Positions 55,830 through 59,201 of a DNA stretch of 64,000 nt are shown here, piece by piece. Source of the DNA: a virus; the IMG/VR virus record IMGVR_UViG_3300025322_000015, positions 8,666 to 72,665 of that record. One strand, written 5' to 3'. How positions within the stretch are numbered: position 1 is the first letter of the stretch; each line of letters starts with the position of its first letter. The translations under genes were made by a program, and so were the position numbers. Below the pieces are notes generated by a model. That model worked only from the letters and a program-made list of their open reading frames with translations. It made no database searches and was not told the origin of the DNA.

Positions 55830-55864
55830 CTTCGTCTCCTGTGATGTGTTTCGTCTACCTATGC

Positions 55865-55897
55865 ATTATGTGTAAGGTAAAGCGATTACTAACGCAA
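55865..55897 (-). promoter_or_regulatory. phage early promoter copy 2
   Basis: TTGCGT-N17-TACACATAAT. Confidence 0.8.
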
Positions 55898-55916
55898 TGC
55901 AGAAATTGTCTGAGCC

Positions 55917-56576: not shown

Positions 56577-56602
56577 CTCCTGTTGTGTGCGTCTGCCTAT
56601 GC

Positions 56603-56635
56603 ATTATGTGTAAGGTAAAGCGCCTACTTACGCAA
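56603..56635 (-). promoter_or_regulatory. phage early promoter copy 3
   Basis: TTGCGT-N17-TACACATAAT. Confidence 0.8.
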
Positions 56636-56688
56636 GCGCCCTTTTGTATATGAAAGAAAATAGTGGCCCAGTCTCCTGGGCCACCTTA

Positions 56689-57789
56689 CTAGGCGCTGAT
56701 CTTCTCCTGACTGCGCACGAGCTGGACAACCTTCGGGCTGGTCTTGCGCGTAGCCTTCTTCTCGGCTGCAACCTTGCGAGCGGCTGCCTTCTTCGCTGCG
56801 GCGGCAATCTTCTTGGCCTCGGCCGCTGCCTTCTTCGCGGCTGCGACAGCGCGACGTTTCGCGGCAGCAAGGTTCTTCTTCTCGAGGGCAATCTTCTTGG
56901 CTTCGATAATCTTCTCTGCCGCTGCAAGCTTCTTCGCCGCCTCAGCATCCTGACCTTCGGTAGCCGCCTTCTTCTTCGCTGCCGCTGCCAACTTCCGGGC
57001 CGCAGCCGCTTTCTTCTTTGCCGTCTCTACCTTCTTCGCGGCAGCAGCAATCTTCTTCTCAGCAGCAACCTTCTTGGCAATGATCTCCGCTTTCTTATCT
57101 GCGGAAAGCTTCATAGCGTGGCCAATCATCCCAGCAGCAAAGCCGGACATTAGGCTGATCATCTCCATCATCACCATCTGGAAGACGACAATCATCGCCG
57201 TCGTGTACGTGTCGATTTTGGTTCCAGCAACCTCGAACATCGTCTGGCCGAGAATCGCCTTCCCCGACATCGCTGCGGTCGTGTTCGCTTGCTGCTTCAC
57301 AACCTGGACCTTAATCTCTTTCTCCAGGATGTCTACGCGAGCAACAAGAGCGGTGCACTTGTCCTTACAACCTTTGTTCTTCGACTCAGCGAGCATCATC
57401 GCGCGCGCCACATCGAGAGAAGCGCGGAGGTCCTTTAGGTTCTCAGCACCAACCGTTTCGATCTTCTGCGCCGTGTGCGTCGTTACAAACTGCGTACCGA
57501 ACATATCGGCAGTGGCTAGGAAGGCGCAGACGAAAGATACGAGTGTGACCATCCAGTAGATGCTGCGCAGCAGCACCGTCTTGCCCACCGCCTGCATGGC
57601 AACCGGCAGAACCATCTTCGTGACGTCGCCGATAGCGAACATCACCGCACCAGCGATACCCATCGTCAGACCGACGACGACGTTAATATACAAGCTTAGG
57701 CCACCGGCTACGAGCACGATGGCGAAAATCACCGTACCAAAGATCCAAGCTGCGGCGATAGAAACGGACTTCTTAGCGGACTGGTTCAT
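56689..57789 (-). CDS. membrane protein with a coiled coil and an Ala/Lys-rich (histone H1/TolA-like) tail
   Basis: N-terminal TM helices, CKDKC, further TM, AAAKK repeats; AGGAG SD. Confidence 0.75.
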   Translation of the reverse strand: MNQSAKKSVSIAAAWIFGTVIFAIVLVAGGLSLYINVVVGLTMGIAGAVMFAIGDVTKMVLPVAMQAVGKTVLLRSIYWMVTLVSFVCAFLATADMFGTQFVTTHTAQKIETVGAENLKDLRASLDVARAMMLAESKNKGCKDKCTALVARVDILEKEIKVQVVKQQANTTAAMSGKAILGQTMFEVAGTKIDTYTTAMIVVFQMVMMEMISLMSGFAAGMIGHAMKLSADKKAEIIAKKVAAEKKIAAAAKKVETAKKKAAAARKLAAAAKKKAATEGQDAEAAKKLAAAEKIIEAKKIALEKKNLAAAKRRAVAAAKKAAAEAKKIAAAAKKAAARKVAAEKKATRKTSPKVVQLVRSQEKISA

Positions 57790-57807
57790 GACTAACTCCT
57801 ACTTGAT

Positions 57808-57884
57808 CGGGATGCCTCATCGGGCCGTGAGCTCCCACCTCACAACGACCATCGGGGAAGCTTTCGCTTCCCCTAGGTTTCGGC
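57808..57884 (-). ncRNA. type II hammerhead ribozyme HHR-A (U4C core)
   Basis: gcc GAAAC-stemIII(GAAA loop)-GUC | 8-bp stem I-CCGAUGA-ggc; loop I UGGGA pairs with the 3' tail UCCCG; predicted cut between 57847 and 57846. Confidence 0.85.
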
Positions 57885-57885
57885 T

Positions 57886-58299
57886 CTACTTCGTTAGCAC
57901 GATGGAACCAAGTTCCACCCAGAAGGCGCGAACAGCGTCCTCGGCCAAGTTGCTTGCAGCCGATGTGGACCGGCTACCCAACTTCATGCTCGAAAGAACG
58001 TTCCGAAGCGCCTCAGACTTAATCCGCTCCGGAATTGCATCGCCGTCGGCAGCATCCTTAATCTCGATAAGGACCCGCGCCGCCTGATCTGCCGTGAACG
58101 CCGCTACTGGAAGCTCGATGGCATACCAGCCCAACCAATGCGCCTGATGATGAAAAGTTACATCACCGTGCTCGCCGGCATAGGCAGCGTCCATCTCTGC
58201 TTGAGTCTTGAGATTCTCCAGCATCGACGTATAAAGATTCATCTTCGCGTTTAGCAAGAGACGAAGATTACCGACGTTTTTCGCTTCTCCGAGGAACAT
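57886..58299 (-). CDS. hypothetical protein flanked by HHR-B and HHR-A
   Basis: CAGGA SD. Confidence 0.75.
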   Translation of the reverse strand: MFLGEAKNVGNLRLLLNAKMNLYTSMLENLKTQAEMDAAYAGEHGDVTFHHQAHWLGWYAIELPVAAFTADQAARVLIEIKDAADGDAIPERIKSEALRNVLSSMKLGSRSTSAASNLAEDAVRAFWVELGSIVLTK

Positions 58300-58317
58300 T
58301 TTCTAATCCTGTGTAGT

Positions 58318-58396
58318 TGAGATGCCTCATCGGGCCGGGGTCTCTCACACCTCAGCGATCATCGGGGGCAGCTTTCGCCACCCCCTAGATTTCGGC
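58318..58396 (-). ncRNA. type II hammerhead ribozyme HHR-B (U4C core)
   Basis: gcc GAAAU-stemIII-AUC | stem I-CCGAUGA-ggc; loop I UGAGA pairs with UCUCA; predicted cut between 58357 and 58356. Confidence 0.85.
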
Positions 58397-58699
58397 TTAC
58401 TTCGTCGGATACTTTACGGCGTGCAGTTCTAGGAAGCGCTTGCACTCGGCAGCTTGGTAAGCTGCGCGATTGCGATACATCTGAGCAGCGTCGAGGTCAC
58501 CGTCGACCTCTGCATGCTTGACCCTATTCTCATACTTTGCAGCTAGGGTACAATGTGCCTTCGCGTCGTTTAGGCTAACGATACACCAGACGCCTTTCCA
58601 GGTCACCTTCTCACCGCACCTCTCGGTACCTTCCCCAGCTAAAACCGTTGGGACTGTAAGCAGTACAACTGAAGCAGCGAGGGCGATAACTTTAAGCAT
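58397..58699 (-). CDS. small secreted Cys-containing protein flanked by HHR-C and HHR-B
   Basis: Signal peptide MLKVIALAASVVLLTVPTVLA; four Cys. Confidence 0.75.
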   Translation of the reverse strand: MLKVIALAASVVLLTVPTVLAGEGTERCGEKVTWKGVWCIVSLNDAKAHCTLAAKYENRVKHAEVDGDLDAAQMYRNRAAYQAAECKRFLELHAVKYPTK

Positions 58700-58714
58700 C
58701 TTCTACTCCTGTGA

Positions 58715-58789
58715 ATGAGCTGTCTTATTCAAGCCGGGTAGCTCATCTCCCGACGACCTTCGAGGAATTTTTTTCCTCTAGGTTTCGAC
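58715..58789 (-). ncRNA. type II hammerhead ribozyme HHR-C (U3-A8 core with a 1-nt insertion)
   Basis: guc GAAAC-stemIII-GUC | stem I-UUGAAUAA-gac; loop I AUGAGCU pairs with AGCUCAU; predicted cut between 58755 and 58754. Confidence 0.8.
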
Positions 58790-59022
58790 TTTTCGTCTTC
58801 TCCGGTGTGCTTTCGCGGCCGGTAGGTTTAAGGTCCAGGAAGTCCTTTTTCTTTTTATCGTGAGCTTCTTTTGATGTTCCCAGCTTCCGCTCCGTTCGGT
58901 GCCTGGTTCCCCTTCTCGGGTCGGTAGTCCTCTCTACCGTCTTCTCTAGTCGCTGGTCGGGCCTGGAGCCTTTCCTTTCGGAGCCTTGAGGGGTCTTTCG
59001 ACACTTGCTCTGCAGCTCCGAT
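58790..59022 (-). ncRNA. structured purine-rich leader / candidate ncRNA
   Basis: Several hairpins (GUC-GAAA-GAC, CGGUAG-AGAGGA-CUACCG, CCGG..GC-GAAA-GC..CCGG), A-rich linkers, no credible ORF; TSS approximate. Confidence 0.55.
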
Positions 59023-59028
59023 AAATAC

Positions 59029-59057
59029 AATATAGTAACTTCTTTGTAGTAATGCAA
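59029..59057 (-). promoter_or_regulatory. sigma70-type promoter of the ribozyme operon
   Basis: TTGCAT-N17-TATATT with an AT-rich upstream tract. Confidence 0.75.
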
Positions 59058-59201
59058 TACCTTTTATATAAAATAAAGCAAAAAAACTAAAAAGATTTTA
59101 CTACCCCGGAATATACTTGCTCTGCTTGAATATCTTTGCTGTCTATCCGTTGTATTTAAGACCAACTACAACCTTTTGCAATAAAAAACCTTGTCGAATA
59201 C

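Follow-up and report, generated by a model that had tools for sequence, protein, structure and literature searches.

Type II hammerheads with variant cores precede each cistron of a three-gene phage operon and are candidate self-cleaving ribozymes

A phage operon carries a type II hammerhead before each of its three cistrons, and we consider it likely, with a probability of about three in four, that these elements are functional, pseudoknot-stabilised self-cleaving ribozymes, one per cistron of a single phage transcript, which tolerate their departures from the canonical core. The operon lies in a stretch of 64,000 nucleotides (the window) taken from a 72.7-kb IMG/VR viral record, and all relevant features are on the minus strand. 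The fold of the elements, their homology to canonical hammerheads, the covariation, the conservation of the variant cores and the recurrence of such cores in unrelated phages are established by comparison.

None of the three elements, hammerheads A, B and C, has the strict core C3 U4 G5 A6 N7 G8 A9. Hammerheads A and B carry a C at position 4, with the core letters CCGAUGA (U4C; CCGATGA in the reverse complement). Hammerhead C has U3, A8 and an extra nucleotide between A6 and A8; the reverse complement of its core positions reads TTGAATAA, so that the RNA core is UUGAAUAA, a U3-A8 core plus one extra A. All three retain G5, A6 and A9, and also the 3-8 pair, as C-G or U-A. An earlier note on this DNA had described the three cores as non-canonical, and its coordinates and letters were reproduced exactly on the minus strand.

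Folds, descriptor, covariation and alignment to a canonical model agree that hammerheads A, B and C are of type II, with stem II open and stems I and III closed as hairpins, and in each of them loop I pairs with the tail 3' of stem II as a pseudoknot. Read 5' to 3', an element consists of a 3-nt stem II strand (GCC or GUC), GAAA, the stem III hairpin closed by the A15.1-U16.1 pair, C17, the stem I hairpin, the variant core, the stem II partner (GGC or GAC), an invariant A, and 4-6 nt complementary to loop I. Stem II, which closes the three-way junction, is thus 3 bp long, either GCC/GGC or GUC/GAC. G12 A13 A14, the A15.1-U16.1 pair and a non-G nucleotide at H17 are present in 3/3 window elements and in 28/28 distinct elements of the clade of related phages. 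The cleavage triplet is GUC in hammerheads A and C, and AUC in hammerhead B. Stem III has a conserved 2x3 internal loop (5'-UA / 5'-GAU or GAA) 2-3 pairs from the junction. This loop is found in nearly the whole clade and also in canonical type II hammerheads of Melainabacteria MAG contigs (L138, L146), and may be a tertiary or protein-binding motif. The positions of all parts are collected in Table 1.

Table 1. Positions of the hammerheads, their parts and the surrounding operon features in the window, listed in the direction of transcription
Feature	Position	Strand	Remark
Promoter-like TTGCAT-N17-TATATT	59057-59052 and 59034-59029	minus	upstream end of leader
Leader, ~270 nt	58790-59057	minus	purine-rich, without ORF; between promoter-like sequence and hammerhead C
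Hammerhead C, type II	58715..58789	minus	first of operon, upstream of 100-aa gene
Hammerhead C, stem II	58787-58789 paired with 58722-58724	minus	GUC with GAC
Hammerhead C, GAAA	58786-58783	minus	
Hammerhead C, stem III internal loop	58758-58760 with 58779-58780	minus	
Hammerhead C, C17	58755	minus	predicted cut 58755/58754
Hammerhead C, stem I hairpin	58733-58754	minus	
Hammerhead C, core	58725-58732	minus	UUGAAUAA; U3-A8, extra A at about 58728
Hammerhead C, pseudoknot	58741-58746 with 58715-58720	minus	AUGAGC with GCUCAU
Cistron 1, 100 aa	58397..58699	minus	between hammerheads C and B
Stop codon UAA upstream of hammerhead B	58397-58399	minus	directly adjoins stem II
Hammerhead B, type II	58319..58396	minus	upstream of 137-aa gene
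Hammerhead B, stem II	58394-58396 paired with 58324-58326	minus	
Hammerhead B, GAAA	58393-58390	minus	
Hammerhead B, stem III internal loop	58350-58352 with 58386-58387	minus	
Hammerhead B, C17	58357	minus	predicted cut 58357/58356
Hammerhead B, stem I hairpin	58334-58356	minus	
Hammerhead B, core	58327-58333	minus	CCGAUGA; C4 = 58332
Hammerhead B, pseudoknot	58343-58346 with 58319-58322	minus	GAGA with UCUC
Cistron 2, 137 aa	57886..58299	minus	between hammerheads B and A
Stop codon of ORF upstream of hammerhead A	57886-57888	minus	near first base of stem II
Hammerhead A, type II	57809..57884	minus	upstream of 366-aa gene
Hammerhead A, stem II	57882-57884 paired with 57814-57816	minus	
Hammerhead A, G12 A13 A14-A15.1	57881-57878	minus	
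Hammerhead A, stem III hairpin	57848-57878	minus	
Hammerhead A, stem III internal loop	57840-57842 with 57874-57875	minus	
Hammerhead A, C17	57847	minus	predicted cut 57847/57846
Hammerhead A, stem I hairpin	57824-57846	minus	
Hammerhead A, core	57817-57823	minus	CCGAUGA; C4 = 57822
Hammerhead A, pseudoknot	57833-57836 with 57809-57812	minus	GGGA with UCCC
Cistron 3, 366 aa	56689..57789	minus	downstream of hammerhead A
Intrinsic-terminator-like hairpin and T-run	56662..56685	minus	closes three-cistron unit
Promoter-like modules, downstream intergenic	55830-55916; 56577-56688	minus	in place of hammerheads

The earlier note had stated that strict searches would miss all three elements, and this is indeed the case: Rfam hammerhead models give no match at gathering score and none at E<=10 on 57600-59200, while canonical relatives are matched. 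As Rfam gave no match, a covariance model (R2) was built from 11 canonical CUGAUGA type II hammerheads of unrelated viral and bacterial contigs, with no member from the window or from its clade. On the 64 kb of the window, R2 returned only three matches, namely hammerheads A, B and C, at 55.6, 47.2 and 39.9 bits (E-values of 6e-13, 1e-10 and 1e-8, which are rough because the calibration was short). The R2 alignment places the C of the window cores opposite the consensus U4, and the extra A of hammerhead C as an insertion after A6. This contradicts alternative core registers; moreover, with stem I shifted by one base or U4 assumed to be deleted, either an extra nucleotide stays unpaired or the 1.1-2.1 pair is lost.

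The window elements do not reach the gathering threshold of the Rfam family RF02276 (37 bits), and the Rfam Hammerhead_II model has no match at E<=1 on the clade loci L009, L153 and L129. Among the controls, the canonical L136 reaches 50.9 bits, and L134 reaches 29 bits. Some C4 hammerheads of other phages score above the threshold, at 41-48 bits, and C4 alone therefore does not hide an element from Rfam. It is the combination of the core change with a long, interrupted stem III that causes the window clade to be missed. The failure of Rfam to detect the window elements and the tested clade loci nevertheless counts against our preferred explanation.

Syntenic operons were found by pattern scans and protein look-ups in a 99%-complete IMG/VR phage (G001, the same as L009) and in Logan and JGI contigs, and exhaustive enumeration together with a clade model (R1) gave a set of 28 distinct elements from about eight related phage contigs. 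A blastn search of the operon against the phage GenBank collection had no match, and a search for related loci with the 366-aa protein found no relative. The first pattern scan of genome contigs had no match either, and the second returned only canonical-core hammerheads and chance matches in coding sequence. Among 23 distinct members of the clade, pairing holds in 93.9% of cells, compared with at most 47% when the partners are slid, and compensatory changes occur at 19 of the 24 base pairs (the alignments, A3, A5 and A6, come from model fitting and are thereby biased towards the structure that was modelled). For the pseudoknot of the same 23 members, all four pairs covary and 97.8% of cells are paired.

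With respect to the core, the clade elements form two main classes. In one, C3-G8 is combined with C4 (CCGAUGA or CCGAAGA; 13 distinct sequences from 7 contigs), and in the other U3-A8 is combined with U4 (UUGA(A)NAA, with or without the extra A; 12 distinct sequences). C4 always occurs with C3-G8 and U4 always with U3-A8, an association that may be phylogenetic, and the core class tracks the operon position across phages. Orthologues of hammerhead C are polymorphic for the extra A, with the cores UUGAAUAA, UUGAUAA, UUGACAA and UUGAACAA. A canonical core was found among the close relatives only in L134. Three clade elements are odder still, two in L154 and one of L157/L158. At L154:3-89 and L154:288-373, one core is CGUGAAGAU, with an extra G and U, and the other is UAUGAAGA, with a mismatched stem II; at L157:245-332 and L158:174-262, the core UUGAAUAA is accompanied by an A.C mismatch at the 10.1-11.1 pair. 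These may be decaying copies or further tolerated variants.

The earlier note had suggested a relaxed search of related phages, and the search described here found C4 and U3-A8 conserved among the homologues. Canonical homologues next to decaying window copies were looked for in the relatives, which instead keep C4 and U3-A8. In the C4 class, 12/13 core columns are invariant and only N7 varies, compared with 4/30 free and 15/48 paired columns outside the core, at a mean identity of 67%; from phage to phage, the proteins that flank the elements share 48-59% identity. Given that about 13% of free columns are equally invariant in the class, the invariance of C4 alone is weak evidence of selection, and the class may descend from one ancestor.

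The variant cores are not sequencing errors, since independently assembled contigs (IMG/VR, JGI and at least six different Logan SRA runs) have the same cores at syntenic positions. More generally, it is highly improbable that the elements are decaying relics or products of faulty assembly or sequencing. Apart from the deviation from the consensus, nothing points in this direction; it is contradicted by the identity of the cores between the independent assemblies, by the compensatory substitutions in stems and pseudoknot, and by the C4 elements of other phages, which are as well formed as U4 elements.

These other phages were found by scanning IMG/VR for a type II frame with CCGAUGA, in which stem II was fixed as GCC/GGC and N7 as U, so that the C4 frequencies are not unbiased. 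The scan returned 55 stretches, and R2 validated hammerheads in 36 loci, which contain 39 further distinct C4 type II hammerheads and 34 U4 siblings. Pairing amounts to 96.9% in the C4 elements and 97.3% in their U4 siblings, among which the C4 elements are interspersed, and the pseudoknots are equally long. The C4 elements are thus not decaying. At least six contigs hold C4 and U4 elements that are most closely related to one another, and the change therefore arose repeatedly. The control scan for a purine (A or G) at position 4 returned 44 stretches, 0/44 of which were hammerheads. The extra-nucleotide core is also present in other phages, in 12 distinct elements with CUGAAUGA and 2 distinct elements with UUGAAUAA. 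The rarity implied by the earlier note appears overstated in view of the recurrence of U4C in phage type II hammerheads, the viroid precedent, and a published descriptor, CYGANGA, that allows U4C (PMC13481778).

In large clusters, C4 is in the minority, with ratios of U4 to C4 of 8 to 1 in L192, 9 to 1 in L201 and 8 to 0 in G002. In the last of these (IMGVR_UViG_3300037540_000380), the 8 canonical type II hammerheads lie within about 5 kb, at 24.1-29.4 kb. Arrays are similarly dense in L192 (at least 11 hammerheads in about 8 kb) and L201 (10 in about 5 kb), and most hammerheads of the three arrays begin directly after a stop codon. A different combination is seen in L129, a 1-kb metagenome contig, where a canonical type III hammerhead (L129:471-525, minus strand; 43.8 bits against Rfam Hammerhead_3, threshold 48.5 bits) lies about 300 nt upstream of a C4 type II one.

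Could the elements have the fold of a hammerhead and not cleave? The earlier note had considered a non-catalytic role, and the fold might have been kept as a structural insulator, or as a protein-binding or RNase entry site between cistrons. We regard this as unlikely. G5, A6, A9, G12, A13, A14, A15.1, U16.1 and C17 are invariant in 28/28 distinct clade elements, so that the remaining catalytic-core nucleotides and the GUC/AUC cleavage triplet, including the C at the cleavage site, are preserved while stems and loops vary, and the only substitution found at position 4 is the pyrimidine transition. In favour of a non-cleaving fold are the report that position 4 is nearly intolerant to change (PMC9901934), the lack of an Rfam match, and the further oddities of the clade, namely the extra nucleotides in L154 and the A.C mismatch in L157/L158.

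In the three-gene operon, each hammerhead occupies the gap that separates a stop codon from the following ribosome-binding site. Searches of Pfam and PHROGs with the three cistron products gave no family match. In 19/20 elements of the window and its relatives, the upstream stop codon ends -2 to +1 nt from the first base of stem II. The distance from stem II to the next start codon, which is preceded by a CAGGAG-type Shine-Dalgarno sequence, is 16-36 nt (16-32 nt in the syntenic clade, 36 nt in L134). In G002, whose cluster is canonical, stop codon and stem II abut in the same way (TAAGCC, TGAGCC), so that this arrangement is not peculiar to variant cores. Ribosomes that terminate there would sit over stem II, GAAA and part of stem III, and translation may thus be coupled to ribozyme folding. 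No terminator-like site was called between the cistrons on the minus strand; together with the lack of a U-tract after stem III, this speaks against the elements being intrinsic terminators. The promoter-like sequence upstream of the leader was read directly, and a consensus scan made no promoter call there. In G001, L148, L150 and L153, a fourth or fifth hammerhead is found before homologous small genes. Since these relatives have extra hammerheads where the window has promoter-like modules, hammerhead presence is polymorphic among related phages.

Cleavage, its rate and the fate of the products are predicted here from the sequences. Each hammerhead would fold during transcription and cut 3' of C17, and cutting would free the leader, by the cut in hammerhead C, and three monocistronic mRNAs. 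The upstream product would carry the stable GC-rich stem III hairpin and a 2',3'-cyclic phosphate at its 3' end. The 5'-OH end of the downstream product would lie at the base of the stem I hairpin and of the pseudoknot, with about 10-20 nt separating it from the Shine-Dalgarno sequence. In bacterial mRNA decay, such ends resist 3' exonucleases and the 5'-monophosphate-dependent entry of RNase E. The product ends would therefore insulate and stabilise each cistron as a separate message. The variant cores are probably natural alternatives that are tolerated by a strongly stabilised scaffold, slower than CUGAUGA in vitro and adequate in vivo.

All components of this arrangement are precedented: type II phage clusters, U3-A8, A6a, the U4C viroid variant and the CYGANGA descriptor. 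For hammerhead clusters that flank single prophage genes, including triple arrangements comparable to that of the window, cleavage has been demonstrated both in vitro and in E. coli (Perreault et al. 2011, PMC3088659), and the type II topology with a pseudoknot was described in the same work. Type II hammerheads also cleave in vivo in Desulfovibrio (PMC8782182). The window elements share with the prophage type II clusters (PMC3088659; RF02276) the open stem II of 3 bp, the pseudoknot between loop I and the tail, and the presence of several copies around single phage genes whose function is unknown. They differ in having CCGAUGA or UUGAAUAA instead of CUGANGA, in the lack of an Rfam score, and in the long stem III with its conserved UA/GAU internal loop.

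For the individual core changes, the statements of the earlier note that U3-A8 is tolerated and that changes of U4 lower activity agree with Perreault et al. 2011 (PMC3088659) and Roberts 2023 (PMC9901934). U3-A8 is a natural and tolerated variant, and a hammerhead with the A6a insertion cleaves, albeit slowly (PMC3088659). Hammerhead C joins exactly these two described deviations, and only their co-occurrence is different. The position-4 substitution of hammerheads A and B is the same as in the U4C viroid variant, which, as cited in PMC3088659, is impaired in vitro and sufficient in vivo (Ambros & Flores 1998). According to this account the viroid U4C is a sequence variant within a viroid population, whereas the phage C4 is fixed at syntenic sites of a lineage and is met again in at least 36 further viral contigs, on a type II pseudoknot scaffold. 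Apart from the swap of the 3-8 pair, U-turn mutations gave low co-transcriptional activity in a type III hammerhead with tertiary stabilisation (Roberts 2023, PMC9901934), which counts against our preferred explanation. The phage Bcep176 hammerhead (A6C; PMC3088659, PMC7151607) is likewise intergenic and has a single core substitution, but at position 6 instead of 4, and the change alters the metal preference, in favour of Mn2+ (Naghdi et al. 2020, PMC7151607), rather than simply killing activity. The CYGANGA descriptor (Zhang & Zhang 2026, PMC13481778) allows C or U at position 4, as found here, in work that has neither a covariation test nor a control, nor the context of a phage operon. The C/T degeneracy reported there follows from the descriptor, which itself permits either letter.

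It is possible, although we hold it to be rather less than an even chance, that the hammerheads are deliberately attenuated or conditional (dependent on Mn2+, pH or a factor) and set the timing or relative dosage of three early proteins, with cleavage possibly gated by ribosomes that terminate at the stop codon next to stem II. The syntenic operons of this lineage hold no canonical hammerhead (0/3 elements in the window, 0/4 in G001, and none in L148, L150 and L153), whereas the clusters of other phages (G002, L192 and L201) are mostly canonical, and the core class is conserved by operon position. A contact between U4 and the A6/N7 phosphate has been described (PMC3088659). C4 and the insertion after A6 would both perturb this contact of the U-turn, and U3-A8 would weaken the 3-8 pair. 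The effect of both C4 and A6a on the contact, together with a lineage that lacks canonical cores, keeps a conditional function under consideration. The changed metal preference of the phage A6C core and the abutment of stop codon and stem II in nearly all elements point the same way, but the abutment is shared by the canonical G002 cluster. Moreover, C and U interchange frequently among close paralogues in other phages, which suggests that C4 is nearly neutral in the type II scaffold. It is somewhat more doubtful still that C4 marks a distinct functional core subtype, with deliberate rate-tuning or conditional mRNA processing in this lineage. Conditional control could be exerted via Mn2+, via pH (by protonation of C4), or via a terminating ribosome that covers stem II.

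Compared with the literature searched, what appears to be new about the tolerated variant cores is the controlled evidence for C4 as a recurrent, structurally intact variant of phage type II hammerheads, and the existence of a lineage without a canonical hammerhead in its syntenic operons. U4 is commonly taken to be invariant, and C4-type sequences are lost to strict descriptors and to the thresholds of Rfam. The conservation of C4 in a lineage, its apparently independent recurrence in dozens of viral contigs and the absence of purines at this position suggest that surveys undercount real ribozymes. The data also imply that the pseudoknotted type II scaffold buffers, or uses, a change that cripples other constructs. 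Finally, the window is a compact natural test set, in which one transcript holds two C4 cores together with a U3-A8 core that has an extra A. It could be used to address whether the speed of ribozymes is tuned by phages as a means of controlling how polycistronic mRNA is processed.
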